From positions 1-64,000 of the IMG/VR virus record IMGVR_UViG_3300034389_000010: 64,000 bases of DNA, one strand, 5' to 3'. Below, piece after piece: positions 26,557 through 64,000 of the stretch. A program made the position numbers and the translations under genes. Source of the DNA: a virus. Each line of letters starts with the position of its first letter. Positions within the stretch are counted from its first letter, which is position 1. The notes beneath the pieces are model-generated. The model worked only from the letters and a program-made list of their open reading frames with translations. It searched no databases and was not told the origin of the DNA.

Positions 26557-26568
26557 TATTTCCGCCTC

Positions 26569-26597: not shown

Positions 26598-26603
26598 TGA
26601 GCT

Positions 26604-26906
26604 ATGGAAAAGCCCACCCCCCACTACAAACTAACCGACATCAAAGCTTTGGTAGCGGCGCGCAAGGTGCGGTCTACGCGTACTGCCGACAATGGCGCTA
26701 CAGAGTTGGGAATGAACACCAGGGCAATGCTACTGGTCGTGACGGCACTCAAATCCAGCGACTTTGACAAGAGCATGACTACCTACGCCGATCACACTGC
26801 CTGGCAGGATGTTTACAAGCCCGTGGTTGGGGGTGTCGAGTTGTACGTCAAGCTTATGGTTGATAACGATGCCGTAATCGTTTCGTTCAAGAGGTCAACA
26901 CTATGA
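26604..26906 (+). CDS. mqsR: MqsR family mRNA interferase toxin
   Basis: MEKPTPHY.L...KSMTTYADHT.WQDVY.P...YVKL...VSFK. Confidence 0.95.
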   Translation: MEKPTPHYKLTDIKALVAARKVRSTRTADNGATELGMNTRAMLLVVTALKSSDFDKSMTTYADHTAWQDVYKPVVGGVELYVKLMVDNDAVIVSFKRSTL

Positions 26907-27810: not shown

Positions 27811-27973
27811 GGCTTGCCTCGCTGGGGATATGCAAGTGACTTGCATATTTGGGTATCAGGTGATACTAATTTGCCGTCGATCGACGTAGGGCAGGCAGCT
27901 TATCCGCTGGCGCTTGCCCTGCTCGGTACGGTTACCGATTAGGTGGGCACAGACCTGCCGCCCAAGAACGCAC

Positions 27974-27989
27974 CCAGGACATCACCATG
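27974..27989 (+). repeat. Start-associated repeat CCAGGACATCACCATG
   Basis: Exact core copy. Confidence 0.8.
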
Positions 27990-28070
27990 ACCCACTCCCG
28001 CTCTGCAGAGGCGCGCCGTGCTGTGCGCTGCTGTTCTTCCAGCCCCTTGGCACGGGGGCGCAGGTCATGA
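27987..28070 (+). CDS. 27-aa peptide MTHSRSAEARRAVRCCSSSPLARGRRS
   Basis: Begins at repeat ATG; ends in ATGA overlap with next ORF. Confidence 0.45.
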   Translation: MTHSRSAEARRAVRCCSSSPLARGRRS

Positions 28071-30910: not shown

Positions 30911-30992
30911 CCCTACCAAACAAGGCGTTACGGCTCACAGGTGACATTTTACGACACTATAAAGCAAGTCACTTGCCTGTTATGCTTTCCTT

Positions 30993-31119
30993 CTCCCGAC
31001 CGCTATTTCGTCAGTTTTGGCGCGATATGTCGGGTAATCACCAGGATCCGTGGATCCTGATGGTGAATGGGGCATGGAAGCCCACCCATTCAGACCCGCC
31101 GCTTTGGCGGGTTTTTTTT
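30993..31119 (+). ncRNA. Candidate ~125-nt structured sRNA
   Basis: Extended -10 TGnTATGCT (30978-30986), three hairpins, intrinsic terminator. Confidence 0.6.
31094..31119 (+). terminator. Rho-independent terminator ACCCGCC-GCTTT-GGCGGGT-T7
   Basis: GC stem plus U tract. Confidence 0.9.
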
Positions 31120-31125
31120 GCCCGC

Positions 31126-31167
31126 CGGAAAGCCCGGCGAAGCGCCCCCTCTGGCGCACGCGATCAT
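31126..31167 (+). promoter_or_regulatory. Late-promoter element CGGAAAG-N29-GATCAT
   Basis: Immediately after terminator, upstream of ddrB-like operon. Confidence 0.8.
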
Positions 31168-31195
31168 GGCGTATCTGATTCTGCGAGCGCCACGC

Positions 31196-35615: not shown

Positions 35616-35938
35616 TCGCAACCCAATACACCGTGCTGACCCCTTGCGGCAGCTTCCTGGCCCAGTGGGACGCCGATGCGGAGGTGCCGGTGCAGTACGC
35701 AGGCAACCCGGACGGCATCGAATTTTTCCGCCTGAATCTGAGCCTCAATCTCGTCTCCGGGCGCGACGGCCGCCTGCTCAACGCCGACAGCCTTGAGCCC
35801 GACGATCTGTATGGCTTCTGCCAGGACGAGGCGAGCGGCATCGTCGTCATGCCCGGCGCCCAGGATCTGCTCGACATTGCTCAGGCCGAGGCCGAGCGCG
35901 CTCACGAGCACCGCGAGGAGGTGCTGGGCGATGAGTAA
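35612..35938 (+). CDS. Small acidic protein in cargo operon
   Basis: TTG start with GGAGG RBS, overlaps both neighbours. Confidence 0.55.
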   Translation: MIATQYTVLTPCGSFLAQWDADAEVPVQYAGNPDGIEFFRLNLSLNLVSGRDGRLLNADSLEPDDLYGFCQDEASGIVVMPGAQDLLDIAQAEAERAHEHREEVLGDE

Positions 35939-38900: not shown

Positions 38901-39899
38901 AAGGCCCAGCTGGACACCCTGCATAACGCCCTGGTCGGCGGCCGGCACCGGGCGCAGACCGGCCTGAGCTATGCCCAGCAGCAGGAACTCAAATACTCGC
39001 CGCTGTCGGGCAAGGACGCAGGCTATGCCCAGCTGCCGCGCCTGTTCATGAACCATGACTATGACGCCGTGCAGCGCGCCCTGGAGACCGGCAAGCCCAA
39101 GGGCTGGCAGGCCCTTTCCCGGCAGCTCAAGCAGCAGGACCGGGACAACATCGACCCCGTGCTCTACAACGCCGTGTGGAAGGCCCTGGAGAGCGTCGGC
39201 AAGACGGACGCCTTCAACTGGTACGGCCGCGAGCAGCTGGCCAAGCGGAACCGCCTGACCCGCATGGGCCTCACCACCGACGATGAACTACGCATCGCCC
39301 TGGGCGAGTACCTGCAGTTCAAGGAGGGCGTGCGCGACGATCCGATCGCCAGGGCGGAGCTGGCCATCGTCGGCGAGAAGGTTGGCCTCGATTTCTTCCC
39401 AACGCCCAAGGGCGAGGCCAGCAACATGGCAAGCCTGGCGCAGATCACCAAGGGCATGCGAGTGCTGGAACCGTCCGCCGGCAACGGCAACCTGGCCGAC
39501 GCGGCCCGCGCCGCCGGCGCCGACGTGGACGTGATCGAGATCAGCAGCAGCCTGCGCAAGATCCTGGACGCCAAGGGCTACAACCTGGTGGCGCACGACT
39601 TCATGGAGTTCGCGCCCGAGCAGCCCTATGACGCGATCCTGATGAACCCGCCTTTCTCGAACCGCCGCGACGCCGACCACATCCGACACGCCTTCGGGAT
39701 GCTCAAGCCCGGTGGCCACCTGGTGGCGATCGCAGGCGAAAGCGTGTTCAACGGATCGGACGCCAAGGCGGTGGCCTTCCGCGACTGGCTGGACCAGCAC
39801 GGCGCCGAGGTCGAGCGGCTGGCCAAGGGGACGTTCGAGGACAAGAAACTGCTGGCCACCACCAGCGCCAATGCCCGGCGGATCGTCCTGGTCCGCTGA
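35931..39899 (+). CDS. Large polyvalent protein: LPD3-like, ADP-ribosyltransferase-like, C-terminal N6-adenine methyltransferase
   Basis: LYHGT..F..F...G.G.YLT (ART-PolyVal-like); DFFPTP, VLEPSAGNG, NPPF methylase motifs. Confidence 0.8.
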   Translation: MSKPVMTALLRVQLSNDLAAEVAALPATSPLGRVQATGRIVALLQRLEGLTITPEQAAFDKAKAFYQGTLQGQIVQSVVGPVRLTGKGWRKAKFGLKEDLLKARLIEHIVEILQGGTAGQRREPYKERDDGMVAFYFIQKDVQIDQELVTAGVTVGEDAQGNLFYNVSHAGAKGWTANENENGTLDSTWIEPRFVLDAVNDSVAEDDLNITILAVRPVGGRQAFATVVPDKGGAVLILGDADAIAMRVREQFGKPQIVEGGVRLTKGDARLAEFIPREIETLASGAVLEHYASGGVAVRGDFRGGLEGIAQDLPHLESAFVYSHGPEVFAQVFGKEADPADAQAYFEQQDEIAQRHADNEARETAERIEYARRTDDWSKVTAEERAQLQAERDAAMRAYAERDLANWMATIGTGTSDNPRLQAYLDTVEDLSPENRTMIQVGYMGWIPKRIAEYEPTAGRMPYLPGSPTYIAWQAGFTALCRAWADAHLSERVKSTASAEQAPLYQVTELYHGTALPFDTFAEGQRRGAGFDHQGAGWYLTNDRQGLARYFASMAAVKLSGRPGFTPEEQELLEEGVILRVSIAGTRVLDLTRVDADPELVAMVSDIVNGNALRERVLAMGLDGVAFVEPNPPEGVVTLPDAVTVVMYHPEKGKVLGYEAAESVPELPFPSEDPQPVPPTGRAKPGGEVGVNGFFYKGGTFLPTTQLPLQGSQGRTATRVRTLLIEPGVRAEAPDGYAAIFGSYLEFIQVGADGVASLLVRPDEAIAAYVNDDVAEGRAFLRAAVDAYNGGMRWYKAGDIEVTEEHREEPAAPEYEIIEHETGRKKILRGIVRTDLTYAQAKAIDEYTFKKNGGYFIREKHLESMGLAPAGGGEPAPEPALDPEAEALRQQQREIERQQREADRLANEQERERRRVTEQVATLRKVAASSLEKATEELNRDRQTNTARRAGMAASILERAEKDRALSVTLGNLADAIEQGKATHLAGLTSKAQLDTLHNALVGGRHRAQTGLSYAQQQELKYSPLSGKDAGYAQLPRLFMNHDYDAVQRALETGKPKGWQALSRQLKQQDRDNIDPVLYNAVWKALESVGKTDAFNWYGREQLAKRNRLTRMGLTTDDELRIALGEYLQFKEGVRDDPIARAELAIVGEKVGLDFFPTPKGEASNMASLAQITKGMRVLEPSAGNGNLADAARAAGADVDVIEISSSLRKILDAKGYNLVAHDFMEFAPEQPYDAILMNPPFSNRRDADHIRHAFGMLKPGGHLVAIAGESVFNGSDAKAVAFRDWLDQHGAEVERLAKGTFEDKKLLATTSANARRIVLVR

Positions 39900-45199: not shown

Positions 45200-46132
45200 A
45201 TGAGCGTCTTTGACGGACTGAGTTCGACACTGTCGAGCGCCGCCAAAGGCGCAGGCTCGGTGCTTTCGGGCGCCACCAGTGGCCTGGTACATGACATCGG
45301 CGGCGAGGTCCTGGGATCTGTCGGGGACTCCGGCAGCATCCTGGGCACCCTTGCCGGCGCCCTGGGCGGGGTGTTCGACACCTTCGGCGCCCGCCAGACC
45401 TGGGGCCGCCTCAATCCCAAGTTGCTCGCCCAGCTCTACGCCTGCGACAAGGAGGGCAACATGGTCGAAACCGGCTATGTGGCCGGTCCGATCAGCGACG
45501 ACAACATGGAGATTGGCCTCAACTGGCAGAGCCCGTTCGAGAACTCGGGTCCCGAGACCAAGGTGCCCTCGATCATGGCGCTGCTGCAGAGCGGCCAGGC
45601 GGCCACGGTGATCAACGCCCTGCAGGTGTCCGGCGTGCTCGGTACCAGCGAGGAGCTGAACACCATCGCCGACAACGCCAAGAAAGCAGCCGCTGCCTTG
45701 GAAGGCCGCACCGGCATCACCAAGGTGAACAGCCGGCAGGTATTTTCGGGCATGCCGCCGATCAAGGTGTCGATGACCCTGCACATGCGGGCGCTGGTGG
45801 ATGCGCAGCGCGAGCTGATGGAGCAGTACAACCGCCTGCTGTCCTGGTCCCTGCCCCAGCAGCTGGCCGAGGACAGCTACCTGACCGGCATCATCCGCCA
45901 GGGTGGTGACGTGACGGAAATGGTCAAGGCGCTGTTCCCCTCCGAGGCGCCGCGCATGGTGTCGTTCCACTACGGGCCGCTGGCCTTTCCGCCCATGGTC
46001 ATCGAGCACGTCGGCCACCCGCTGAGCGCGCCGCAGAACAAGGACGGCAACTGGATCCAGCTACCGGTGCAGATCACCCTGGCGACGCTCACAGCGATGG
46101 ACCGGCAGGACCTGGTCTATTTCTTCCGCTGA
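45200..46132 (+). CDS. Tube-fold/baseplate protein (PmgG-like)
   Basis: WQSPFEN, NSRQVF.G.PP; position. Confidence 0.55.
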   Translation: MSVFDGLSSTLSSAAKGAGSVLSGATSGLVHDIGGEVLGSVGDSGSILGTLAGALGGVFDTFGARQTWGRLNPKLLAQLYACDKEGNMVETGYVAGPISDDNMEIGLNWQSPFENSGPETKVPSIMALLQSGQAATVINALQVSGVLGTSEELNTIADNAKKAAAALEGRTGITKVNSRQVFSGMPPIKVSMTLHMRALVDAQRELMEQYNRLLSWSLPQQLAEDSYLTGIIRQGGDVTEMVKALFPSEAPRMVSFHYGPLAFPPMVIEHVGHPLSAPQNKDGNWIQLPVQITLATLTAMDRQDLVYFFR

Positions 46133-46181
46133 TCGAAAGCTACGACGCCGGCACCTGAGCGGGCCGGCGTCGCTGGCATCT

Positions 46182-47162
46182 CTACTTGAACGCCTTTCCC
46201 GCCACCGAGGTGCGTAGGTGCCGCCACAGTGGACGTTCCAGGATGAAATGGAAGGCAACAGCCAGCGCCAGCGCGAGGCCAAAGACCAGCAAGAACTGCC
46301 ACCCCTTCTCCAGGTGCAAAGGCTCGGTGAGCCATATCATCGGGAAATGAAACACAAATAGTCCGTAAGACGTAGCCCCTGCGTATTGCTGCAATGTGTG
46401 CATTGCCGGTGAAAGTCTGGCTTTGCTGGTCAGCAGGATCAGGGGAATGCCCAGTAAGATACCGGCGCTTACTTCCAAGTCAGGCACTTGCCGCGTCCCT
46501 GTGATTAGCAGTGCTGCCACATGCAGCAATGCCAGCACGCAGATGGCAGCCAGTAGGCATCTGCTCGCGAGTGTTCGCCGCTCTATCAAAACGCCGATCA
46601 TGAATACAAAAAGCACACCAAAAAGCAGTCGGTATCCATACCAATCGGCATGCAGCACGCCAATATGCGCGCAAATAAATACGACGAAACTTCCCGCTGC
46701 ACACAGCGCCCCTACCCTGGGGTATGTGAGAAGCAGAGGCATGATCAGATAGAACTGCAATTCGGCCCCTAGCGACCATGCCGGCGGTATCAGCGTGAAT
46801 CTATCAATACCGTTATACATATAGTAGTTAAGAGGTACGATGGTCAGATTGCCTAGCCATGACGCTATGTTGCTGGCCTCTGATAGGTAGTAAGACTTTG
46901 CACCTGATAGCCAAATCCCTGTCGCCACCAGTAGTGCAGCAAAATAAAGTGGATATATCCTTAATAGCCTGTCGGTATAAAACCACTTTATAGATGGTAG
47001 CAGGTCAGCGTGGGGGCGTTTCGCCCACAACTTCGTTACTACATGACCAGCCAGCATATAGAAAATTATGACTGCCCATACCCCGACGTTGTAACCCAGC
47101 GGCTCAATGCCTACATGGCTGACCACCACCAGGGTGGCGAGAAGAAAACGTAGAAACCCCAT
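46182..47162 (-). CDS. Acyltransferase-3 (OafA/Oac-like) O-acyltransferase moron
   Basis: LRF.LA..VV.SH, AV.IFY.LAG, R.LRIYP, PAWSLG.ELQFY, SYG.F.FH.P; multi-TM; low GC; opposite strand. Confidence 0.9.
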   Translation of the reverse strand: MGFLRFLLATLVVVSHVGIEPLGYNVGVWAVIIFYMLAGHVVTKLWAKRPHADLLPSIKWFYTDRLLRIYPLYFAALLVATGIWLSGAKSYYLSEASNIASWLGNLTIVPLNYYMYNGIDRFTLIPPAWSLGAELQFYLIMPLLLTYPRVGALCAAGSFVVFICAHIGVLHADWYGYRLLFGVLFVFMIGVLIERRTLASRCLLAAICVLALLHVAALLITGTRQVPDLEVSAGILLGIPLILLTSKARLSPAMHTLQQYAGATSYGLFVFHFPMIWLTEPLHLEKGWQFLLVFGLALALAVAFHFILERPLWRHLRTSVAGKAFK

Positions 47163-47243
47163 TTCGTTGCAGTGCCTTGTCCTAAAGGCGCGAATACTAA
47201 CGTGGCACAGCCTTGCCTGTACCAAATGAGGCTGTGTTCCTTT

Positions 47244-47285
47244 CGGAAAGTCTCCCCGAGAGGCCCCAGGCCTGCGCCCCACACT
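47244..47285 (+). promoter_or_regulatory. Late-promoter element CGGAAAG-N29-CACACT
   Basis: Upstream of tube operon. Confidence 0.8.
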
Positions 47286-47314
47286 CTGCCCATTACTCGC
47301 ATTGGGAGAGCCCC

Positions 47315-47788
47315 ATGACTGTATCCACCGAGGCCTACATGGCCCAAATGATCAACGAAACCCTCGCCCTGGGCGACAAGACCCTCAGTTCCGACGCGCA
47401 CTTCGTGATCGACGGTTTCGAGAACCTGACCGTGCTGGCCAAGCAGTTTCCCTGGCCCGTGCTGACCCCCGAGGGCGAGATCGAAACCCCCGCCCCCATG
47501 GGCATCAAGATCGGCCAGCCGCAGCAGATCAATGCGTTCCAGCGCAGCCCGATCGCCTTCATGGAAACCCGCGCGGGCCACATCGAAAAGATGATCCGCG
47601 AGATCAACGAGAAGGGCGGCCGCTTCAATGCCCGGATCTACGAAGGCACCCGCGAAAACCCGCTGCGCACCGCGCGGATCTTCAACTGCTGGGTGCAGAT
47701 GGAGCCGATCGATCGCGACATCGAGAACCGCGCGCAGATCGTGCTGTGGTCCGGCACCCTCTTCTACCACTACACCGGCGAGGCCTAA
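47315..47788 (+). CDS. Tail tube protein (P1 BplB-like)
   Basis: 157 aa beta-rich tube-like pattern, strong codon bias. Confidence 0.6.
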   Translation: MTVSTEAYMAQMINETLALGDKTLSSDAHFVIDGFENLTVLAKQFPWPVLTPEGEIETPAPMGIKIGQPQQINAFQRSPIAFMETRAGHIEKMIREINEKGGRFNARIYEGTRENPLRTARIFNCWVQMEPIDRDIENRAQIVLWSGTLFYHYTGEA

Positions 47789-47791
47789 GCC

Positions 47792-48337
47792 ATGCGCTGC
47801 TCGGTGCTGCTGGCCAGTTACGTCGCCGTCCGCCCGCTCGGCATCATCCTTGAGGATGACCAGCTGGCGCGCAGCCTGAAACGGTCCATCCGGTTCTATT
47901 GCGGCTATGCCACGCTGACCCATGCGCCGAGCGCCTTCGAGATCCTGCTGCAGGACGCCGAGGCGGCGCGCATCGCGGCCGAGCGCCAGCAGATCGACCT
48001 GCTGGGTATCGGCGGCGTGCTCACGCCCTGGGAACGCGCCGCGCTGCCGAAGGTGCCGCTGTACGCCCCGCGCGGGGTGGACGTGCATTCCCCGGTCGAT
48101 GCCAGCAACGGCTTCATCGGCGACCAGGACTTCGACCTGACGCCGAGCGAATACGCACTGATCTGGCCGCTGTTCGAGCTGTATGTGGAGTTGGAGAACG
48201 CCGAGGCCCTGGAAGCCTCGCGCGCCAGCGGCATGGACGGCTGGGGCCGCAGCACCGACACCATCCGCGCCGAGATCGAGCAGACCGAGGAGCGGATGAG
48301 CAAGGCCGCCTTCGAGTTCGAGTGCATCACCCTATGA
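47792..48337 (+). CDS. Head-tail adaptor-like protein (PmgC-like)
   Basis: FYCGYA, EYALI.PLF.LY.E.E.A..LEASR. Confidence 0.5.
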   Translation: MRCSVLLASYVAVRPLGIILEDDQLARSLKRSIRFYCGYATLTHAPSAFEILLQDAEAARIAAERQQIDLLGIGGVLTPWERAALPKVPLYAPRGVDVHSPVDASNGFIGDQDFDLTPSEYALIWPLFELYVELENAEALEASRASGMDGWGRSTDTIRAEIEQTEERMSKAAFEFECITL

Positions 48338-54255: not shown

Positions 54256-54903
54256 CCTGAATCGTGGCTGTGATTCATGGAAGCCCTCTAGAATCGCGTC
54301 TCCAGCGGGCGCCAGCTCCAGCGACTCTTTGGTCTGCGCTTGCAGGGCAACGGTGAAGCCGGCCAGCTTCTGCAGCGATTCCTTGAGATCCGCCGCAGGT
54401 GGCTCCTTGGCAATCGAGACGAGCATGTGCGCCAGCGGGGCTATGGGCAAGGGGAGGGCGTGCAGATTGAGCGACTGCAGGTTGCTCAGGCTTTCCTCGG
54501 CAAGGCCGCCATCGATCAGGCTGCGCGTCATGTTGCAGGTGGTGATCTGCAGGAGGCCTACGCCCTTGGCCTTGCAGAAGTCTTTGACTTGCGTCGCCAG
54601 CCGCTGGAGTTCGGCCTGGTCGTCCTCGCTCAGCTCGGCGCAGCGGTAGCTCTTGGCTTCCGGGGCCGGCTCGCTGGCGTTCGTCAGCGGCACCTCGATG
54701 CCGAGCATAGCCGCGACCTTGGCCGCGAACTCGGGATGCGCAGGTGTCTCTCCGCGCTCGAAGCGTGCCCAGTCTTCGGGCCGGATCTTGGTGGAGTAGG
54801 GTGGATGGCCGATCTTTTCGGCGCACTCGCGTATGGTCACGCCGAGGCGGGCGCGGGCTTCCTGGACGCGCTGGATCAGCGCGGGGGTGTCGATCGTCTG
54901 CAT
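54250..54903 (-). CDS. XRE-like HTH protein
   Basis: ARARLGVTIRECAEKIG...WARFERG. Confidence 0.7.
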   Translation of the reverse strand: MQTIDTPALIQRVQEARARLGVTIRECAEKIGHPPYSTKIRPEDWARFERGETPAHPEFAAKVAAMLGIEVPLTNASEPAPEAKSYRCAELSEDDQAELQRLATQVKDFCKAKGVGLLQITTCNMTRSLIDGGLAEESLSNLQSLNLHALPLPIAPLAHMLVSIAKEPPAADLKESLQKLAGFTVALQAQTKESLELAPAGDAILEGFHESQPRFRA

Positions 54904-54918
54904 GGTGATGTCCTGGTG
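54901..54918 (-). repeat. Start-associated repeat CACCAGGACATCACCATG
   Basis: 18/18 identical to 5866-5883. Confidence 0.8.
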
Positions 54919-54939
54919 TTTCTATTTATGGGGGTGGTG

Positions 54940-55395
54940 CTATCGGGTGTAGACAGGTACCGGCTCGCCGTCTCGCTCGCGGCTGCGCCAATGGGTGCCC
55001 TGGTCCTTGGTGATGACCAGGTCGTTGCGGCCGCCGGCGGCGGCGCCTAGTTGGAAGTGTCGCAGCTCCTTGGCATTGGCATAGCCGAGCAGGGTAGGGG
55101 CGTCGGCCAGGGGTAGAGGGTAGATAGCGAAGCCCATGCCGCCGGCTGCAATCTCGCCACCAGGGTGCGCCTTTCGCCAGGCATCAAGCCGCTCATAGGC
55201 TGCATCACGCTCGGCATCCGTCGCATCGTCGCCCCACCAGCCGGGATGAGTGGCATGGTAGGCCTGCAGCTCGGCGTGCCACTTCTTGGCACGATCCTCA
55301 TCCAGGAACGCCTGCAGCAGATCCGGCGTCTCGTAGTCGGTGGTGGTCATCACCAGGTAGACGCTGGCCAGCGCGGGGGAGGGTAGGGTGCTCAT
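54940..55395 (-). CDS. W-x3-HP-x-G domain protein (1 copy)
   Basis: Paralogous to two upstream genes. Confidence 0.65.
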   Translation of the reverse strand: MSTLPSPALASVYLVMTTTDYETPDLLQAFLDEDRAKKWHAELQAYHATHPGWWGDDATDAERDAAYERLDAWRKAHPGGEIAAGGMGFAIYPLPLADAPTLLGYANAKELRHFQLGAAAGGRNDLVITKDQGTHWRSRERDGEPVPVYTR

Positions 55396-56003
55396 GCGGG
55401 CGTCCCCCAAGCCGAGACATCCAGCCACTCGATCGGCGCGACCACAAAGCCCCGGCAGCGGGCGGCATCGATGCCGCAGGGATGCTTGGCCACCCAATCC
55501 GTCAGCGCCGTGCGAGCGGCCTGCAGCTCGATTGGTCCCAAGCTCTGCCAGTCAGGCTCCTCGGGCTTCTGGTCGTGGTGCGCCTGCATGGCCGCGCAGA
55601 TCCGGGCGGCCTCGGCCTGGTCCGGATGCCAGCCAACCAGCTGCAGGTGGGTGTCGAACTCGGCGGACACCACATAGACCGGTTTGCCCGGCTCGACGTC
55701 GGCGCTGCTCGCGGGTGGCGTAGTCTGCTCATTCTGCGGGAAAGGCTCGACCTTGAAGCCGTCGTAGTTGGCCGCCAGGCTCCCGCCCGGATGCTGTAAT
55801 GCCCAATTCTGCAGCCTGGCCCGAGCCGTGGTATCGCCTGGCTCGGCCGCCGGCGGCCTGGCGCGCTGATAGGCATTCAGCTCCTCGCAGTGCTCGATCG
55901 CTCGGGCTTCGGTGCCGATCAGCAGCGCGTACTTGAAGTCATCGCCGCCGTGGCCGACCACCACATAGAGCGGATCATCCGGTAACTCGCTGGCGGCGTT
56001 CAT
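55392..56003 (-). CDS. W-x3-HP-x-G domain protein (2 copies)
   Basis: Internal duplication. Confidence 0.65.
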   Translation of the reverse strand: MNAASELPDDPLYVVVGHGGDDFKYALLIGTEARAIEHCEELNAYQRARPPAAEPGDTTARARLQNWALQHPGGSLAANYDGFKVEPFPQNEQTTPPASSADVEPGKPVYVVSAEFDTHLQLVGWHPDQAEAARICAAMQAHHDQKPEEPDWQSLGPIELQAARTALTDWVAKHPCGIDAARCRGFVVAPIEWLDVSAWGTPA

Positions 56004-56350
56004 GGCAGCTTGTCCAGGGTGGCGAGCTTGGTGCTATCCAGGAACGGCCGCGACAGCGTCTCGAAGCCGGCCACGTTGTAGGATCGGTTTTCGCCTACCG
56101 GATGGAGCAGCCGCCATTTATTCAAGGCGTCCCGCCGCTTGAAGCCTTCGTCAGGGCTGTGGTCGCGCGAATTGCCCAGCTCGGGCTGCTGCTCGTGGTA
56201 GCGCTGCAGCTTGGCCACCGCCTCGTCGGCGATCTCTTCGCTGTCGGCAAACCAGAGCACGATCAGATGGCCATCCGTGTGTCGCATGCACACGGCATGG
56301 CCGTAGCGCGGCCCGTTGCCTGATCCGTTGTCTTGTGGCATCGTTTGCAT
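56000..56350 (-). CDS. W-x3-HP-x-G domain protein (1 copy)
   Basis: GAGGGG RBS before ATG 56350. Confidence 0.6.
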   Translation of the reverse strand: MQTMPQDNGSGNGPRYGHAVCMRHTDGHLIVLWFADSEEIADEAVAKLQRYHEQQPELGNSRDHSPDEGFKRRDALNKWRLLHPVGENRSYNVAGFETLSRPFLDSTKLATLDKLP

Positions 56351-56440
56351 CCCCTCTGTTGTACCTCTTGATTCACCCATCCGCGTGACCCTCCCGAAAA
56401 ACTGACCCGAAAGCCAAGCGGGACAGGTACGAATGGGCTC

Positions 56441-56468
56441 CTTTAACATAATCGGTATTATGCGAAGT
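56441..56468 (-). other. XerC/XerD dif-like recombination site ACTTCGCATAA-TACCGA-TTATGTTAAAG
   Basis: 11-6-11 layout; XerD arm matches TTATGTTAAAT at 10/11; XerC arm ends TTCGCATAA; intergenic. Confidence 0.85.
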
Positions 56469-56540
56469 CAAGCCAAAGCCGGGCAGGGCGACCGGACGCA
56501 GATTCCACGTCAGGCCGCGCACTATGGACGGCTTCCCGGC

Positions 56541-56768
56541 CTAGCTGCTTGCCCAGTCCAGCACCGACTGTTCGTAGGGTTGGAGTGAGCCGTTAACTTC
56601 CCGGATCTCTTCGGCAGCCTGGCGGCAGTTCGCTTTCAGCTGCTCCACAGTGATGCCGTGGAGCGCCGCCACGCTGTTGGCGTTCTTGGGGCCGCCGCCG
56701 TCGCGGATTCCCAGGAACTGCATGTGATGTACTGGCGCGCCTTCAAAGGGATTTTTGCTATCGCTCAT
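56541..56768 (-). CDS. Hypothetical protein
   Basis: GGAG RBS. Confidence 0.6.
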   Translation of the reverse strand: MSDSKNPFEGAPVHHMQFLGIRDGGGPKNANSVAALHGITVEQLKANCRQAAEEIREVNGSLQPYEQSVLDWASS

Positions 56769-56815
56769 AGGTGAATCTCCATGCTGCCGGCAGCACCGGC
56801 GGTTTCGTTACGTTG

Positions 56816-57022
56816 CTATTCTGCCAAGTAGTCGTCGGGCAGGTACCGTAGGGATTTCAGCGCCTGACCGTGGCCATCGGTCCAGTCGATCGCCTCGGCA
56901 CTGTTCGGCTTGTGCGGGCACTCTTCGCCCAGGCCATCCATCTGCGCCAGGTAGCCAGCCACCCAAGCGCGCGTGCGGTACCGGCCTGCACCGGTACGCT
57001 GGGCGTCCAGGTGGCTTGGCAT
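56816..57022 (-). CDS. Rmf/CrpP-fold-like small protein
   Basis: GY.A...G....CP.......W..G pattern. Confidence 0.5.
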   Translation of the reverse strand: MPSHLDAQRTGAGRYRTRAWVAGYLAQMDGLGEECPHKPNSAEAIDWTDGHGQALKSLRYLPDDYLAE

Positions 57023-57288
57023 CAGTATTCGCCTCGCATCAGGCCGTCATCGTCCGGACCGTAGGCGCCATCGCCACCGTCGTACATGCCGTCCAGGGAC
57101 GCCACCACCAGGCGGCCCAAGGTGCTGCGATCATGCTCCGCGCGCAGCGAGCCGGAGCCGCTACCCCCGAACACCTCAAGGCCCAGCTTTTGCGCCTCTT
57201 TGGCGTAGCGCGAGAGTCCCCGAGCGATCCGGGCGACCTCTTTAGGGTCCACGCCCGCAGCGTGGCACTCATCCTCGTAAACGTGCAT
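57022..57288 (-). CDS. Hypothetical phage protein (GGSGSGSLR..DGGD)
   Basis: GGAG RBS. Confidence 0.6.
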   Translation of the reverse strand: MHVYEDECHAAGVDPKEVARIARGLSRYAKEAQKLGLEVFGGSGSGSLRAEHDRSTLGRLVVASLDGMYDGGDGAYGPDDDGLMRGEY

Positions 57289-57327
57289 CCGTCTGTCTCC
57301 CCATGGCCGAACTTCTGGCCTAAACTA

Positions 57328-57343
57328 CTGTTTATAGATACAG
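57328..57343. promoter_or_regulatory. LexA (SOS) box CTGT-TTATAGAT-ACAG
   Basis: Near-consensus TACTGT-N8-ACAGCA in divergent intergenic gap. Confidence 0.85.
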
Positions 57344-57362
57344 CACTTTACGGACAATTCCC

Positions 57363-57749
57363 ATGTATCTCTGTCACACGCTGATCGAACAGATCGACGG
57401 CCAGAACGACATGCTCGGCGAGGGACCCGCTGATGAGGTCGAGCGCCTGCGCATCGCTCTGCTCAATCGCACCGCCCTGGCCGCGCACCTGTCGCGCGAG
57501 TGCGAGGATGCCCAGCTCAAGGCCAACGACCTGCTGGCCTGGGTGAAGCGCCTCATCGCCGAAAACCGCCAGTACCGCCAGGCGCTGGGCCTGGAATCGC
57601 TCGATCCGCCGCACCTGCCACCGCGCTATCCGGATAGCGCCCTGGCCAAGGCCCTAGGCGCCACCCGGTCCCCGATCGCGTTCGATCCGAACGACGACTA
57701 CCCGGTGCGCAGCACCTACCAGCTGCCGCTGCTACCAACGGTAAAGTAG
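57363..57749 (+). CDS. SOS-boxed coiled-coil hypothetical protein
   Basis: Only + strand gene here, 19 nt after LexA box. Confidence 0.65.
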   Translation: MYLCHTLIEQIDGQNDMLGEGPADEVERLRIALLNRTALAAHLSRECEDAQLKANDLLAWVKRLIAENRQYRQALGLESLDPPHLPPRYPDSALAKALGATRSPIAFDPNDDYPVRSTYQLPLLPTVK

Positions 57750-57902
57750 CCGGGGCGCATGCCCTGGCCAGGCCTATACTGTCGCCGAGGCCCTGGGGCG
57801 GCGCAGGGTTGGTGCCTACTAGCAGCGGGCAGGCGATACAGCGAACCGATCTGATCAACCGGGACGCCGTGCCGCTGGAACCGCTGCACTGCCGCTTCCC
57901 TC

Positions 57903-58388
57903 CTAACTCCGGCGGCGCTGCTCGATTTTGAACGCCACCGTTCCTCGCGCCGGCTCCAAGCCCAGGATGTGTTCGATGATGTCCCTCCTGGTCGGCATGC
58001 CCATCTTGCGCCGTTCTTCCTCATCGGCCACCAGTTCCTGATTGACCGCTTCCAATGCCGCAGCGGCTTCCCCTTCGGTGTAACCGGCGAGGCCGATCGG
58101 GATCTTGTTGATGCTATTGATGGCGGCGCCGATCAAGCGACTACGCAGGTCAATGGCGCCCTTATCGCTTGCTGACGGCGCCTGGCTGTACGCCTCGGCG
58201 AGCCATTCATAGTCGATCACCAGTGTGCGGCTGCTATCGCGACCACGAATGATCCTGTAGGTCAGCTGATCCGGGACAAGCGCCTGTAGATCCCAGCGCG
58301 CGGACAGCCACTCCGGGAACATCTGCTCGACAGACGCATAGGGTGGGAGATCCAGAGTCTGCAGATTGAAGGGGTTGTGCTTGGTCAT
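57903..58388 (-). CDS. Hypothetical protein
   Basis: ATGA coupling with upstream gene. Confidence 0.55.
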   Translation of the reverse strand: MTKHNPFNLQTLDLPPYASVEQMFPEWLSARWDLQALVPDQLTYRIIRGRDSSRTLVIDYEWLAEAYSQAPSASDKGAIDLRSRLIGAAINSINKIPIGLAGYTEGEAAAALEAVNQELVADEEERRKMGMPTRRDIIEHILGLEPARGTVAFKIEQRRRS

Positions 58389-59023
58389 GGTCGGTTGTCC
58401 TGGCCACAGTGGTGGCAATCCGCGAGGTACTGCTGGGGGTAATAGATGAAGCGGCCGCAGCCGGTGCAGTTCATGCGATCGGGCTTTGGCTTGCGCGCCT
58501 TCTGCAGCTCGATGCCGGTACCGCGCAGCGCCTGGGCGAGCTGTACGTTCTGCCGGTGGACCAGGCGCCGTGCCTTGCTCTCTATATAAAGGAGGGGCCA
58601 GGCGGTGCATCCCTCGCCCAGGGCGATCTCCAGATCCTCCTCGCTCCAGGCCTTGCGCGCGAGATCCAGCACCGGGCCGCGCTGGCCGTGGCTGGTGAGC
58701 CAGATCAGATCGTTCCCGTTCCAGTCCTTTGGTACCTGGAGCACTACCGGGCCGCCCTGAGTGCGGAGCGGTTCCGCCTCCTGCGGCCGGACGTACTGGC
58801 AGTCAACGCCCCGGTGCGCGCGCTGCTCGATGTAGGTCGCCGGCCAGGGCACGTCCGTCTCGCGGCAGTCGTGCTGGCCCTGCGCCTGGTCCTGGGTGAA
58901 GCGCTCGGCCCGGTCGATGTTGGTGGTGTAGCCGCCGCCGAGTGCCCAAAACATGAGCCCGTCGCCGGTGTGTGATCGCGAGTCCTGCAGGAGGAACGCC
59001 TGCTCGATGCGTGGTTGCTGCAC
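58385..59023 (-). CDS. Hypothetical protein with internal duplication and C-terminal zinc ribbon
   Basis: LQ....GN/D.L.W repeats; CTGC...CHHC. Confidence 0.7.
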   Translation of the reverse strand: MQQPRIEQAFLLQDSRSHTGDGLMFWALGGGYTTNIDRAERFTQDQAQGQHDCRETDVPWPATYIEQRAHRGVDCQYVRPQEAEPLRTQGGPVVLQVPKDWNGNDLIWLTSHGQRGPVLDLARKAWSEEDLEIALGEGCTAWPLLYIESKARRLVHRQNVQLAQALRGTGIELQKARKPKPDRMNCTGCGRFIYYPQQYLADCHHCGQDNRP

Positions 59024-59039
59024 GATGATGTCCTTGGTG
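59021..59039 (-). repeat. Variant start-associated repeat CACCAAGGACATCATCGTG
   Basis: Degenerate copy at GTG start. Confidence 0.55.
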
Positions 59040-59067
59040 TGCAGCTCTATGGCCGCATCGATGAGTG

Positions 59068-59502
59068 TTACTGGGTGTGGCGCTGTTGGCCCTTATTAGG
59101 CCCACTCCACGGGGTCTCTACCAAAACGGTCATACCGACTTTGTCATTTTCCAGGTAGCTGACGACCTGGCTGCAGCCGGCGCTTTCCGCTTGCTCGACG
59201 GTCAGGCAGTCGAAGAACTCCCCTTCCGTTGCCTTCATCCGGCGTATGGCCCGGTGGACTACTTCGGCGTCCTGAATAACGACTTCGCGACTGCGCAATA
59301 GCCCTTCAATGACAGTAATCGGGGCGTCGGGACTTACCTTTTCATCAAGGGCAAGCGTCGTGTACAGGTCCAGCATCACCGAGGTGGAAATATAGATGCT
59401 CGCCTCGCCTAACGAGCCTATTAGGCCATTTGCGTGAGCCGACTGCTGCAGGTCGTCTTGCAGTAGATAGCGCAGCAGGACATCTGTATTGAGGGCGATC
59501 AT
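59068..59502 (-). CDS. vapC: PIN-domain VapC-like toxin (atypical active-site residues)
   Basis: MIALNTDVLLRYLL.DD..Q, F.DCL; downstream of AbrB gene. Confidence 0.8.
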   Translation of the reverse strand: MIALNTDVLLRYLLQDDLQQSAHANGLIGSLGEASIYISTSVMLDLYTTLALDEKVSPDAPITVIEGLLRSREVVIQDAEVVHRAIRRMKATEGEFFDCLTVEQAESAGCSQVVSYLENDKVGMTVLVETPWSGPNKGQQRHTQ

Positions 59503-59699
59503 TGGCTGGCTCCGCCTTTCGTTGCGACTTTGAGCAGCCCGCACAGCTCCTTGATCGAGCGCGTGGCGGGGATGAAAGAAAACTCATTGGGGCCAATCTG
59601 GACGAACTCGATGCGGTCACCGGCCTGTAGGCCAAGCCGCTCGCGGACGTCGGCCGGGATGGTGATCTGCCCTTTGCTGGTGATCGTTGCGGTACTCAT
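59499..59699 (-). CDS. AbrB/MazE-fold antitoxin
   Basis: TITSKGQITIP..VR..LGL..GDRIEF. Confidence 0.9.
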   Translation of the reverse strand: MSTATITSKGQITIPADVRERLGLQAGDRIEFVQIGPNEFSFIPATRSIKELCGLLKVATKGGASQ

Positions 59700-59873
59700 T
59701 GAATTTCGCCTTACCTTGAAGTCAGGTTTCAATATATCTGACAGGAACGACGTCGGATAGTCCCGGCCAGCGCCGGTTTTCTGTGCTCCGCATCACGCTC
59801 GATCGCCCTGGGCAATGGCCAATATTGATTGCCCCATGGGCATGGCGCCATGATCACGACCCCATCTATAATG

Positions 59874-59910
59874 GGCATGGCTAATTTCCTCATGCTTAAT
59901 TAGCCATGCC
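59874..59910. repeat. Perfect 13-bp inverted repeat GGCATGGCTAATT/AATTAGCCATGCC within CATG-rich par operator/centromere candidate (59810-59910)
   Basis: Directly visible upstream of parA. Confidence 0.8.
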
Positions 59911-59939
59911 AAATAACTAATAGATCGCAAGGAATCACC

Positions 59940-60599
59940 ATGGGCCAAATCATCATCATCGGCGGCAACAAAGGCGGCAGCGCCAAGACCGCTACCTGCA
60001 TCCAGCTAGCCGTCCAGCTCGCCCACATTGGCGCTGACTTCCTGGTCGTGAACGCCGACCCGCAGAAGTCGATGGCCAACTTCGTGCGCTATCGCCAGCA
60101 GCATGGCGTGACCCCGGCCATTCCCTTGGCCGAGGCCTACGGTGACATCTCCACCCAGCTGCATACGCATGCCAAGAAGTACGACATCGTGCTGGTGGAC
60201 GTTGCCGGCCGTAACAGCGCCGAGCTGGTCACCGGCCTGCTGGTGGCTGATCAGGTCATCGCGCCGCATCAATCCACCCAGGTGGATCTCGATACGCTGG
60301 AAGAGCTGGCCACCCAGGTCCGTGTGGCCCGGATGCGCGGTAATAACCCGGATCTGCGCGCTCGCGCATACCAGACCATCACCAGCACCCATCGCCACAA
60401 GGGGCCGATCGAGCGTCAGGAGTTCCTGACCTTTGTGAAAGAGTTTCCCGAGTTGGAAGCCATGGAGTCAGCGAGTAACTACCGGTCCGTCTACCGTTCG
60501 AGCTTTGGCGAGGGCAAGGGTGTGACCGAGTGCGACGACGAGAAAGCAGCGGCCGAAGCGGTCGCTCTGTTCAATGAGGTATTTCCCCAATGGTCATGA
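59940..60599 (+). CDS. parA: ParA partition ATPase (short, type Ib)
   Basis: KGGSAKT deviant Walker A, ADPQ, VLVDVAG. Confidence 0.9.
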   Translation: MGQIIIIGGNKGGSAKTATCIQLAVQLAHIGADFLVVNADPQKSMANFVRYRQQHGVTPAIPLAEAYGDISTQLHTHAKKYDIVLVDVAGRNSAELVTGLLVADQVIAPHQSTQVDLDTLEELATQVRVARMRGNNPDLRARAYQTITSTHRHKGPIERQEFLTFVKEFPELEAMESASNYRSVYRSSFGEGKGVTECDDEKAAAEAVALFNEVFPQWS

Positions 60600-60955
60600 C
60601 CCCAAGCCAAAAACGCGCCCTGGCTGAAAGAGCTGAGCGCCCTGCGCCAGACCCCAAGGTCGCGCAGGAGATCGCCGAGGAGTTCGCGGGCCGTACCTAC
60701 GGCGAGTCCAAGCCGCCCGTTGCCGCGCCTGAGCCCGCCCAGGCCGCGCCTGCTGCATCGCCAGGCCGTGGCCGCCCCGCTGCAGCGGTACCGCGCCGAT
60801 CGATCACCCTGAGCCTTCCTGAGCCTATGGTGGAAGCGCTGGAGCTGGCAGCGTTCCAGAACAAGCGCGCCAAGACGGGCGAGAAGACGTCAAGCGGCCT
60901 GGTCGAAAAGGCGCTGGCGGAAGCGGGATGGCCGGTGGACGTGCCGCAGGAATGA
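60590..60955 (+). CDS. ParA partner, probable ribbon-helix-helix centromere-binding protein
   Basis: Disordered N-terminus, SITLSLP..L...S.LVE.AL RHH pattern. Confidence 0.7.
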   Translation: MVMTPSQKRALAERAERPAPDPKVAQEIAEEFAGRTYGESKPPVAAPEPAQAAPAASPGRGRPAAAVPRRSITLSLPEPMVEALELAAFQNKRAKTGEKTSSGLVEKALAEAGWPVDVPQE

Positions 60956-60979
60956 AAAGGGGCGCTAAGGCGCCCCTTT
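60956..60979. terminator. Bidirectional hairpin AAAGGGGCGC-TAAG-GCGCCCCTTT
   Basis: Between convergent genes. Confidence 0.7.
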
Positions 60980-61270
60980 CGCTTTGAGGTATTCGATGTA
61001 CCCCTGGGGGCCACCCAGTACCTGGGACATCGTCAGCGCCTCATCAGCGGCCGCATGGGTGCGGATCCGCTGCTGCTCGATCTGCACCTGGATGGCCACG
61101 GTGTCGAAGTGGCTCCAGGTCAGCTGGCCGGCGAGGATGGAGATCGCCCCAGCCACGCCCAGGGCGAGCATGGTGAGGCGATTGCCGAGCGTGGGTGTCA
61201 TGCGATACCAGCGGTAGCTGAATAGGCCCAGCAGCAGGCCGAGGGCGGTGAAGGCAAGCATGACGTTCAC
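60965..61270 (-). CDS. Small two-TM membrane protein
   Basis: Two hydrophobic segments. Confidence 0.6.
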   Translation of the reverse strand: MNVMLAFTALGLLLGLFSYRWYRMTPTLGNRLTMLALGVAGAISILAGQLTWSHFDTVAIQVQIEQQRIRTHAAADEALTMSQVLGGPQGYIEYLKAKGAP

Positions 61271-61273
61271 GGG

Positions 61274-61633
61274 TCAGGACTCCAGGCGAAACTCGATTCG
61301 CCAGCACAGGGGGTTCATGATGGCCTGCCCGTGCGTGCGCCCGTGCCGGTCATCCCAGGCGTTCGAGAATAGAGCCCAGCTGTCGTACCCCTCGCGGGTG
61401 ATTTCCGACTCATCGATGTCCTCCAGGGGCACGATGCTCGCGGCCTGGATTCTCGCCATGATCAGTGGCCCGACCTTGCCGAAAGGCAGGCCCTCGATCA
61501 GCTCCAGCCGCTGGCCCGCGTAGAACTGCGGATCTCCCAGGCTCTTGGCCTGCTCGAAGGGCACCCGGTGGACCGTCTTGCGTCCCTCGCGCACCGCCTG
61601 GGCGAGCGCTGGGGTCAGGGTGATGCCGCTCAC
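61274..61633 (-). CDS. ASCH domain protein
   Basis: GRKTVHR...L.DI...E...EG....F...W...NP..W.IEF. Confidence 0.8.
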   Translation of the reverse strand: MSGITLTPALAQAVREGRKTVHRVPFEQAKSLGDPQFYAGQRLELIEGLPFGKVGPLIMARIQAASIVPLEDIDESEITREGYDSWALFSNAWDDRHGRTHGQAIMNPLCWRIEFRLES

Positions 61634-62463
61634 TGAGCGGCTTCCTTGGCGGCAGACAGGGCCGACTCGGCGCGATCAAGCCGGGCGCAGGCCTCTACCA
61701 CCTGTTTTTCAGCCTCGGCGATGGCGGCCTTGTGCAGGGCCTCGCGGGCGCTCGTGGGTACCGGTGCGCCGAACTTCTCCAGATAGCCGATAAAGGATTC
61801 GAGCGCCCGCGCGGTGGGCGTCTTTTCCTGATTGAGGTAGTTGGCCAGCATCTGTTCGACCATTTCCACAGCCTTGGCGGTGGCCTCCTCCAGAGAGAAG
61901 CATGGCCAGGCCTCATGGCTGCTGCCCGAGCCGTCCGAGTAGCTGTTCAGTCGGTACTCCAGGTCTCCCATGGCATTCCCGAACAGCGACAGCAGGCGCG
62001 CCTTGCCATTCCAGCCTGTGTCCGACAGGTCATCCGCTGCTCTGATGCCGACCACGCCGTACTCGACACTGACCACATGCGTGACCCGGCCAGCCAGCAC
62101 GTCATCGATGCGCTGCAGCACCTGGTGCTGCTTGAGGCGGTCCAGGAGAGCGCCATGGTCGATCTTGGCGGCGCTGAGCTGGCTATTGAGGTCTGCCAGT
62201 TCCTTGCGCCGGCTGGCCAGCTGCTCGTCCAGGGTGGCGATCTGCTGCGCCCGGCGGCCGATCGGCGGCTCAGCATGCAGAGGGCCGTGGTGGATGATGT
62301 CCGGGCCTTCGTGGGTCACTTCGTTGCCGGCGCCGTCGAAGGTGTCGAATCGGGCCGAGACGACGTGGCCATGACCGGGGACCGTGGTGGCGTAGGTGTA
62401 TTCGTGGCCCTCGCCGTCATAGACGGTCTGGCCCTGCTCGAACTGCTGGGATTGTGCTTGCAT
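61630..62463 (-). CDS. Hypothetical coiled-coil phage protein
   Basis: Starts at start-associated repeat. Confidence 0.65.
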   Translation of the reverse strand: MQAQSQQFEQGQTVYDGEGHEYTYATTVPGHGHVVSARFDTFDGAGNEVTHEGPDIIHHGPLHAEPPIGRRAQQIATLDEQLASRRKELADLNSQLSAAKIDHGALLDRLKQHQVLQRIDDVLAGRVTHVVSVEYGVVGIRAADDLSDTGWNGKARLLSLFGNAMGDLEYRLNSYSDGSGSSHEAWPCFSLEEATAKAVEMVEQMLANYLNQEKTPTARALESFIGYLEKFGAPVPTSAREALHKAAIAEAEKQVVEACARLDRAESALSAAKEAAQ

Positions 62464-62477
62464 GGTGATGTCCTGGT
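62461..62477 (-). repeat. Start-associated repeat ACCAGGACATCACCATG
   Basis: Exact core copy. Confidence 0.8.
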
Positions 62478-62518
62478 CGATCTCGTTATGGGATGCCCGG
62501 CGAACCGGGCTATGTGGG

Positions 62519-62731
62519 TCAGGCGTTAACGCGCGTGAGGTAATTGCAGATGTCGCGGGCGGTGCTGGTGCCGCATCCGTACACCTGGGCCAGGGCGACA
62601 TAACCGCCCTTGCCGGCGGCGTACTGCCTGCGCATCGCCTGTACCTGGTCGAAGGTCAGTCGCGCCTTGGGATGGCTGGCGCCACAGCGGTGACCGCTGG
62701 GCGCTCGCGTGATGCGGCTGCTGGTCTTCAC
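62519..62731 (-). CDS. Small HTH DNA-binding protein
   Basis: G..HP.A.LT..QV..MR.....LA..YG....T.RDI. Confidence 0.65.
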
Positions 62732-64000
62732 AGGGCGGCTGCCTTGGCGACCACCTCACGGGCTCCATTGGAGTCCATCGGCGTGATGATCCCCTCCAGC
62801 TCCATCCGCTCGATCATCCGGGCGGCGCGGTTGTAGCCGATCAGCAGGCCGCGCTGCACGACACTGATGGATGCCCGGCCGGTCTTGCGAACCACGGCTA
62901 CGGCCTGGGCATACATGGGGTCGTTCTCGTCGCCGGTCTCCAGGGCGGGCTCGGTCTGGCCCTGGTCGGCGAAGGCATCCAGCTGCTCCTCGCGCACCTC
63001 ACGGCGTGGCTTGGTGACCAGCTCGACGGTGACGCGCTCGGCGGTGGCGCGCTGAGTGGTCGTCAGCGGCACCAGCTCGACCGCGTCGCCATCCAGGCCT
63101 TGCGGCAGCTCCTCGCCACCCAGGGCCTCGACCAGCTGGGGCAGGAACTCCAGCAGGGTCATGCACATGAGCACGAAGCTTGCGTCGAACTGAGCGGCCG
63201 CATCCTCGCCGCCATCGGCCTCGGCCTGGTCCTGCAGCAGATCCTCGAAGCGCAGGCGGGTCACCTGGGCCTTGTCATTCAGAACGAACGACAGCTTGTC
63301 CTGCCAGGCCAGGGACAGCTTGCTGACCAGCTTGCCGGCGCCCAGGTGGTTCTGGATCTCGTCGCTGGTGAGGTCTTGGCCGGTGGCCACCACCTTGCCG
63401 CCCTCGTCACCTGCATCGACCAGGCTGGCCTGATCCAGGATGTACAGCCCGTGGGTGGCGTCGCCGGCCTTGACCCAGTCGGTCATGGTGGCGGTCGGCG
63501 CCTGCTTCACGCCCAGCGGCCGCACCGGTAGCGAGCCCAGGGCGTCGCGCAGGGTGGACAGCAGATCCTCGGCCACCTTGGGGCTGCTCGCGTCCACCAG
63601 GATCAGACCAGCCTGGGGCAGGATCGCGGCGAAGGTGGTGCGGCGCTTGATGAAAGCGCGCGGCAGGAAGGCCTGCACGATCTCGTCTTTGATCTGCTCC
63701 TTTTCCTTCTTGTAGACCTTGCGCATCTGCTGGGTCTCGATCTCGTCCACCTTCTCCTGGACGGCTTCCTTGACCACGTTGCTCGGCAGGATGCGCTCCT
63801 CCTTGCGGGCGGCGATCAGGGTGTAGCCGTGGGCGTGGTGCGCCAGGGTCTCGCCACCCTTGAGCGGGGAAACGAACCCATAGGTGGACAGCTCCTGGCT
63901 GGCGCAGGGGCGCGCGGGCTTCGCCTGCAGAGCGGCCTCCAGGGTGTCGATGGTCAGGTCGATGGATTGGGTCAGGCGGAAAACCAGCAGATTCTTAAAC
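62728..64000 (-). CDS. rdgC: RdgC with fused C-terminal FtsK-gamma domain (5' truncated by window)
   Basis: Frame open to window end (FKNLLVFRL), EER.LP..VV, LPRAF, LR..LGSLPV; tail DP.Y..AV...[21 protein letters not shown]. Confidence 0.9.

Follow-up and report, generated by a model that had tools for sequence, protein, structure and literature searches.

The virus record IMGVR_UViG_3300034389_000010 of IMG/VR is 97,934 bp long, and its first 64,000 nucleotides make up the stretch of DNA analysed here (the window). Two features near the end of the window are the subject of this report. The first is a 28-bp core site for the recombinases XerC and XerD, ACTTCGCATAA-TACCGA-TTATGTTAAAG, found at 56441–56468 on the minus strand (XerC arm 56468–56458, centre 56457–56452, XerD arm 56451–56441). 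The second, 6.26 kb away, is a gene at 62728–64005, also on the minus strand, in which an RdgC protein is fused to the gamma domain of FtsK. It is a single intact open frame of 425 amino acids whose first 5 nt lie past the end of the window, and it can be divided into the RdgC ring (about 63112–64005), a variable linker (about 62929–63111) and the gamma winged helix (62746–62928). On balance, and with somewhat better than even confidence, the evidence favours a site used for multimer resolution by XerC and XerD of the host, with a private centre that would insulate it from the chromosome, and a fusion that is a separate matter.

The element and its closest relative

The whole record has a CheckV completeness of 100% and a GC content of 65.6%. 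Its virion genes encode a large terminase (TerL), portal, tape-measure/transglycosylase, baseplate, tail fibre, tail sheath and DarB-like giant proteins, and the small terminase gene (terS) is found at 79.4 kb of the record. A ParA-like partition ATPase is encoded at 59940–60599 on the plus strand (Pfam AAA_31/MipZ/CbiA; PHROG 164 ParA-like, E 2.9e-33). Neither a tyrosine recombinase (PF00589) nor a serine recombinase (PF00239) has a match anywhere in the 97,934 bp. The closest relative, pPRS08-11306 (CP018759.1), is a 114,250-bp circular plasmid of Pseudomonas psychrotolerans that is syntenic with the element across the 41 kb compared. It likewise lacks tyrosine and serine recombinases, its ParA is 85% identical at the amino acid level, and its version of the fusion is 81% identical.

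With sheath, baseplate, portal and TerL on the one hand and ParA and a circular plasmid relative on the other, the element combines virion genes with plasmid maintenance genes and signs of extrachromosomal upkeep, as a phage-plasmid does. It is best explained as a temperate myovirus of 98 kb from the Pseudomonas oryzihabitans group, kept as a low-copy plasmid (ParA, no integrase). The initial annotation, made from the letters of the window, had already called it a phage-plasmid with no cre/lox or integrase in view. It had also given the sequence, coordinates, strand, single copy and non-chromosomal spacer of the site, and had described, about 6 kb away, an RdgC with a C-terminal FtsK-gamma domain (about 62750–62925) and an intact recognition helix. 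All of this is borne out, and the lack of tyrosine and serine recombinases now extends to the whole record.

An Xer site with the arms of the host

The core of the site, CGCATAA-N6-TTATGTTAAA, is found a single time in the window, where shuffles predict 0.01 occurrences, and a single time in the whole record. There, a scan for sites that share 15 or more of the 22 arm positions with E. coli dif found no second one. Chromosomal dif in four genomes of the P. oryzihabitans group reads ACTTCGCATAA-TGTATA-TTATGTTAAAT. Compared with this sequence, the XerC arm is identical at 11 of 11 positions, including the group-specific outer AC, and the XerD arm at 10 of 11, whereas the centre is identical at only 2 of 6, the shared bases being the two outer ones. 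On sequence this is an XerC/XerD core site, with 11-bp arms that match those of the host and a centre of 6 bp, where 6–8 bp are expected. Two host-group genomes encode XerD (TIGR02225, 381 bits) and an XerC-like paralogue (289 bits), and since the arms are those of the chromosomal dif, the XerC and XerD of the host should bind the site. The exact 28-bp sequence has no match in about 186,000 species-representative genomes (GTDB) or in IMG/VR.

The site is intergenic, lying between an open reading frame (ORF) at 56541–56768 and one of 113 amino acids at 56000–56341 on the minus strand, about 100 bp beyond the XerD arm. As listed, the latter ORF extends to 56449, which places its ATG inside the XerD arm. 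This start is probably spurious, and homology with the annotation of pPRS08-11306 puts the real one near 56341. Around the site there is a conserved intergenic island of 180 bp (56316–56495) that is 95.6% identical to pPRS08-11306, with the site itself 100% identical, while the syntenic DNA around the island is 75–83% identical. The site thus falls within one of the two most conserved stretches of the 41-kb comparison. The island reaches 26 bp past the XerC arm and about 125 bp past the XerD arm, to the start of the next gene. Beyond the 26 bp on the XerC side the next 430 bp cannot be aligned with the plasmid, and the small genes flanking the site are poorly or not conserved there (53% amino acid identity for the 113 amino acid ORF). 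With a 200-bp version of the island as query against plasmids, pPRS08-11306 was the only match. Neither a sigma-70 promoter nor a terminator consensus turned up when the island was scanned.

A probable replacement for a recombinase

For comparison, 80 IMG/VR loci encoding relatives of RdgC were collected, 30 with a gamma tail and 50 without, and the whole records were scanned. Among fusion-bearing records that are at least 90% complete, those with a good dif-like site are this phage (G000 in the collection), pPRS08-11306 and G028, whose site is TTCCTATAA-TCAGAA-TTATGTTAAA. None of these three encodes a tyrosine recombinase, while 16 of the 18 without a site do (hypergeometric p ~0.0075), a complementarity that comes from only two independent site-carrying lineages, in a sample selected for carrying the fusion. 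As an example, G004 (93.8 kb), whose synteny extends from dUTPase to ParA and takes in RecT, SSB and the fusion, has a recombinase gene directly after parA. Large viral contigs (22–110 kb) that have a perfect-arm site and no fusion are also without a tyrosine recombinase in eight of nine cases, a share that may be usual among such contigs.

This complementarity argues that the site replaces an element-encoded recombinase, and the simplest reading is that it does the job of the Cre-like recombinase of the relatives. Since the element has ParA and its relative is a free circular plasmid, the job replaced is most likely multimer resolution.

Proposed role of the site and comparison with known systems

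Host XerC and XerD would bind the single site through its dif-like arms, and in a plasmid dimer, where two copies are present, they would recombine these to give monomers. The mismatched centre (TACCGA against TGTATA) would block recombination with chromosomal dif. This follows the logic of dif1 and dif2 in Vibrio cholerae, where a replicon-specific central region blocks recombination across replicons (PMC5357621). The 6-bp centre and the lack of an extended conserved flank beside the XerC arm make this a dif-type site, and host FtsK would then be the activator by default. The gamma tail of the fusion, for its part, most likely targets or anchors the RdgC ring on duplex DNA.

Like chromosomal dif and the dif2 of V. 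cholerae chromosome II, the site has 11-bp arms, a 6-bp centre, the arms of the host chromosome site and a centre specific to its replicon (PMC5357621). It differs in that it is carried by a 98-kb tailed phage-plasmid, shows no sign of selected polarity of KOPS, the DNA motif read by FtsK gamma, and has a dependence on FtsK that is presumed. In cer of ColE1 and psi of pSC101 a plasmid also borrows host XerCD to deal with multimers. These sites work independently of FtsK and require some 180 bp of accessory sequence next to the XerC arm, to which PepA/ArgR/ArcA bind, whereas here the centre is 6 bp long and similarity to pPRS08-11306 on the XerC side ends after 26 bp, so a cer/psi-type site was rejected. 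P1 shares the lifestyle of the element, being a myovirus of roughly 95 kb that has Par and DarB-like proteins, and faces the same need for dimer resolution, for which it uses Cre/lox. In the element there is no recombinase of its own, and the job would be outsourced to the host. A lox-like cyclisation of terminally redundant DNA is unlikely, as the site lies about 23 kb from terS.

Besides the small number of site-carrying lineages, several points weigh against multimer resolution by host XerCD as the full account. A dif-type site on a plasmid needs an activator of XerD and has no built-in bias towards resolution, and the proposal does not account for how a dimer would meet FtsK at the septum. 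The island might be so well conserved owing to a promoter or operator, or through recent exchange, and not for the Xer site alone. The polarity of KOPS is of no help. Motifs of the form GGGNAGGG converge near the site, but shuffling of synonymous codons reproduces the strand skew (null 4.6/17.2 against 3/23 observed), and with the skew explained by codon usage there is no positive evidence for steering by FtsK. The only gamma domain of the element is the one in the fusion, which keeps the equivalents of Q1288 and R1289, so that it could contribute to activation. Finally, the most likely role of gamma, that of a portable tail by which phage recombination proteins read DNA or are anchored on it, is something we infer.

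As to individual motifs, a KOPS-like GGGCAGGG, which fits the KOPS consensus, lies within the island at 56481–56488, 12 bp beyond the XerC arm, and is directed away from the site. A cluster of four further KOPS motifs at 54451–55381 is directed towards it.

It is already known that plasmids borrow XerCD and that filamentous and small phages use it for integration. What is new is a tailed phage-plasmid that substitutes a site with host arms and a private centre for a recombinase of its own. A literature search on the RdgC-gamma fusion or on Xer use by phage-plasmids found nothing specific. The borrowing of XerCD would in this way be extended to a new class of elements, the large tailed phage-plasmids, and there is a simple genomic rule that can be tested, namely that an element has either an Xer site or its own recombinase.

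The RdgC-gamma fusion

In the fusion protein, Pfam RdgC (PF04381) covers residues 1–296 on model positions 3–298 of 298 (E 1.6e-106), and FtsK_gamma (PF09397) covers residues 358–418 (E 2.5e-23). Among known structures the RdgC part matches PDB 2OWY (E 4.9e-121) and the gamma part 2J5O/2VE8 (E ~2e-22). There is no motor ATPase (PF01580), and as the protein holds RdgC and gamma domains only, it is not an FtsK/SpoIIIE translocase. The residues of gamma that read KOPS are N1296, R1300 and E1303 in E. coli. The recognition helix with their equivalents can be aligned to the gamma structures of P. aeruginosa and E. coli, and as GYNRAAR..E it is near-invariant in 71 fusions, in which the columns of the linker are gapped and variable.

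Set beside chromosomal RdgC (2OWY of P. aeruginosa, 2OWL of E. coli), the fusion has a full-length RdgC domain, but it adds a variable linker of about 60 amino acids and a C-terminal gamma domain, and it sits in a phage operon with RecT, exonuclease and SSB. Beyond the start of the fusion gene, past the window, there follow a 161 amino acid ORF, SSB (64492–65082), the exonuclease (65149–66426) and RecT (66653–67708), and the same RecT/exonuclease/SSB module surrounds the fusion in pPRS08-11306, G004 and G028. Set beside gamma of FtsK (2J5O, 2VE8/2VE9, 2J5P, 5DCF), the tail has the same winged helix, in which GYNRAAR..E is intact and the Q-R pair is retained, but it comes without the translocase motor and is only about 62% identical to gamma of host FtsK.

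The fusion is found widely among phages and plasmids of Pseudomonas and Vibrio. It was found in 71 of the best 120 database clusters, and at least 80% of its length is covered in 49 phage records, including P. aeruginosa PA8/JBD90-like and Vibrio phages, and in 21 plasmid records. The closest fusion proteins are P0002 and P0004, with 95% and 77% identity. In F116, H66 and LKA5, RdgC is present in its tail-less form. Gamma tails are also carried by an NdpA/YejK-like nucleoid protein (PF04245), a YqaJ-type exonuclease (PF09588) and DUF4423 proteins. They further occur on proteins of about 340 amino acids with an unassigned N-terminus. These fusions are P0143, P0158, P0139/P0148 and P0130/P0137/P0142/P0145, and several of them are on phage-sized contigs. 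It is worth noting that on the 190–200-kb Pseudomonas plasmids NZ_CP096947.1, NZ_MK569690.1, NZ_CP115264.1 and NZ_CP114116.1 RdgC-gamma fusions have been mis-annotated by PGAP as 'DNA translocase FtsK', an error driven by the gamma tail.

The two halves of the protein appear to differ in history. The RdgC domain is 78% identical to the chromosomal RdgC of P. oryzihabitans and P. benzopyrenica and 65–70% identical to that of other Pseudomonas, and its identity to other fusions is 52–67%. In a tree of 131 RdgC domains, the clade of four fusions to which the phage belongs nests with chromosomal P. oryzihabitans RdgC (SH-aLRT 99), and the fused state needs at least 6–8 changes on this tree. Most gamma tails among the 71 fusions nevertheless share a derived Arg, having VR where FtsK has VT. 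A host-like RdgC body together with a derived residue common to most tails suggests exchange of the body with the tail kept, and would fit one old gamma tail that was retained while the RdgC body was exchanged with host rdgC by recombination. All in all, the fusion is best explained as an RdgC variant common on phages and plasmids, in which a DNA ring that antagonises RecA carries a gamma winged helix on a flexible linker. It is an unstudied architecture, and a literature search found no paper combining RdgC, FtsK and 'gamma domain'.

The fusion as a possible activator of the site

The initial annotation went further and proposed that dimers are resolved, or circles formed, through host XerCD with the help of the ring-tethered gamma. 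Of this, the use of host XerCD stands as the best reading, given the arms of host dif and the lack of a recombinase in the element, while a dedicated activator role of the fusion is not supported. In such a role the RdgC ring would tether gamma so as to activate host XerD at the site, freeing dimer resolution or circularisation from septal FtsK. There is a precedent for an XerD activator encoded by a mobile element in XafT of TLC-phi. A dif-type site on an element without its own recombinase needs some activator, and in this case the fusion, as the only gamma of the element, keeps both the Q-R and the G-Y-N-R contact residues. It is also known that gamma, or its 9-mer RQFRIGYNR alone, is sufficient to activate XerCD at dif when brought close (PMC5052618). 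Other candidate activators in the record were rejected: a search of the whole record for an XafT homologue (DUF3653, PF12375) gave no match even with E values of up to 1 allowed, and the 113 amino acid ORF beside the XerD arm has no Pfam, PHROG or Atlas lead.

The initial annotation had suggested looking for co-occurrence of dif-like sites and gamma-fused RdgC across phages, and had named its absence as grounds for refutation. The comparison was made, and the result is negative in both directions. About 26 of 28 fusion-bearing IMG/VR records lack a dif-like site. A convincing one was found among the 28 in G028 only (three others have matches with three mismatches, which were not counted), and among tail-less RdgC records in 0 of 22. 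In the other direction, none of 21 site-bearing viral contigs of at least 21 kb has a gamma domain. Syntenic relatives that have their own tyrosine recombinase and no site still keep the fusion. In addition, plasmid-like elements in two genomes of the P. oryzihabitans group carry further sites, whose arms resemble those of the host and whose centres are private (CACAAC and TCTTTG), and the only gamma in these genomes is that of FtsK. In their distribution, the fusion and the site are therefore independent of each other.

The sequence of the gamma domain would allow an activator role but does not suggest one. The activating 9-mer is RGLLIGYNR here, RKLKIGYNR in host FtsK and RRLKIGYNR in pPRS08-11306, so that two elements with an identical site differ at two of the nine positions. 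Only this phage and P0002, its closest relative, show the changes from K to G and from K to L. Between this phage and pPRS08-11306 the gamma tails are 74% identical and the RdgC parts 92%, so the tail evolves faster, whereas gamma of host FtsK is nearly invariant across 16 species. In the crystal structure of XerD with gamma, the contacts are Q1288, R1289, R1292, I1293, G1294 and N1296 (PMC5052618). Here the equivalents of the critical R1289 and of Q1288 are kept, and that of R1292 is Leu, at a position that varies across fusions. One and the same surface of gamma serves both KOPS and XerD (PMC5052618), and as the same residues contact KOPS DNA, their conservation cannot separate the two functions. 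The initial annotation had also cautioned that the segment reading TE[KS]R[KR]A in cellular FtsK, thought to contact XerD, is altered in the fusion. This caveat is outdated, as the structure and mutants place the contacts elsewhere and a mutant of R1280, inside TEKRKA, behaves as wild type, the residue being dispensable (PMC5052618); the segment was ruled out as a test of XerD contact. A complex prediction of the gamma tail with the C-terminal domain of P. aeruginosa XerD gave a score of 0.00 and was not used either way.

Taken together, it is unlikely that the RdgC ring presents gamma to XerD as the activator that the site depends on, and a moonlighting role of the fusion in XerD activation is similarly doubtful. 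The same holds for a broader version, for which the chances are also low, in which gamma tails on phage recombination proteins (RdgC, NdpA/YejK-like, YqaJ exonuclease) would be diffusible activators of XerD and the RdgC-gamma ring would fire the private-centre site. If true, such tails would couple phage homologous recombination to Xer resolution that is independent of FtsK.

Other explanations

A different use of the tail would be directed at the host, with gamma as a decoy that occupies KOPS or XerD and so disturbs the loading of FtsK or the resolution of chromosome dimers while the phage recombines or grows lytically. The single surface of gamma for KOPS and XerD (PMC5052618) is compatible with this, as are the conserved recognition helix of the fusions and the presence of gamma tails on several phage proteins of DNA metabolism. 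On the other hand, plasmids and prophages that are stably maintained carry the fusion, and for them harm to host segregation would be costly. One or two gamma domains also bind KOPS much more weakly than the three of an FtsK hexamer. A decoy is accordingly improbable. Whichever function the tail has (KOPS targeting, XerD contact or decoy), establishing it would show how phages steer recombination on host-like DNA.

Least probable of all is that the site is an attP of the kind used by integrative elements that exploit Xer (IMEX), such as CTX-phi, VGJ-phi and TLC-phi, with the phage integrating at host dif via XerCD and the plasmid state being transient. Like these, the element appears to exploit XerCD, it has no integrase, and the arms can be taken as identical to host dif (11 of 11 and 10 of 11 as measured), but its centre shares only the two outer bases with host dif, where known IMEX keep homology beside one cleavage point (PMC5357621). 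Homology is thus lacking beside either cleavage point, no integrated copy or second site was found in the genomes and IMG/VR records searched, DUF3653/XafT is missing, and the element has a ParA partition system and a free circular relative with a single site. Xer-exploiting elements may nonetheless be active in the host group, as suggested by G075, in which two sites with two mismatches each lie about 2–4 kb from chromosomal dif (contig C45) and may form an IMEX array.

Further observations

The two extra sites with private centres in the P. oryzihabitans group are found at G075:C9 (L324, locus position ~9920) and G078:C20 (L325, ~9935). The arms equal those of host dif in one and differ by a single change in the XerC arm in the other. 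Each lies in DNA of lower GC content beside a transposase-like gene of 467–483 amino acids with a helix-turn-helix domain (HTH_32/HTH_29), and one adjoins TraF/TraH.

In the element itself, the end of parA is overlapped by a small ORF at 60590–60955 on the plus strand, which has no family match in Pfam or PHROG and is 57% identical at the amino acid level in pPRS08-11306. Its position makes it a candidate for the centromere-binding partner of ParA. A replication initiator was not identified in the element, and scanning the whole record for Rfam families and tRNA genes gave no match.

A second conserved island is located outside the window at 77502–77789 of the genome (L001:17502-17789), where identity to pPRS08-11306 is 95% within a region that is about 80% identical. 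It belongs to an intergenic stretch of about 410 bp in which two 22-nt arms, 91% complementary and separated by 68 nt, form an inverted repeat. The island lies some 1.6 kb upstream of terS and could serve in regulation, as an origin or in a pac-related role.

Within the window, the GC content dips at 46001–48000 (0.58) and at 26001–28000 (0.61), compared with 0.66 overall. These stretches contain opposite-strand or unassigned ORFs and may be acquired morons. At 28586–39899 there is a run of giant genes (774, 897, 633 and 1368 amino acids) with PHROG matches to DarB-like antirestriction, minor-head and DNA-methyltransferase proteins, and these resemble the defence-evasion proteins that P1 injects.

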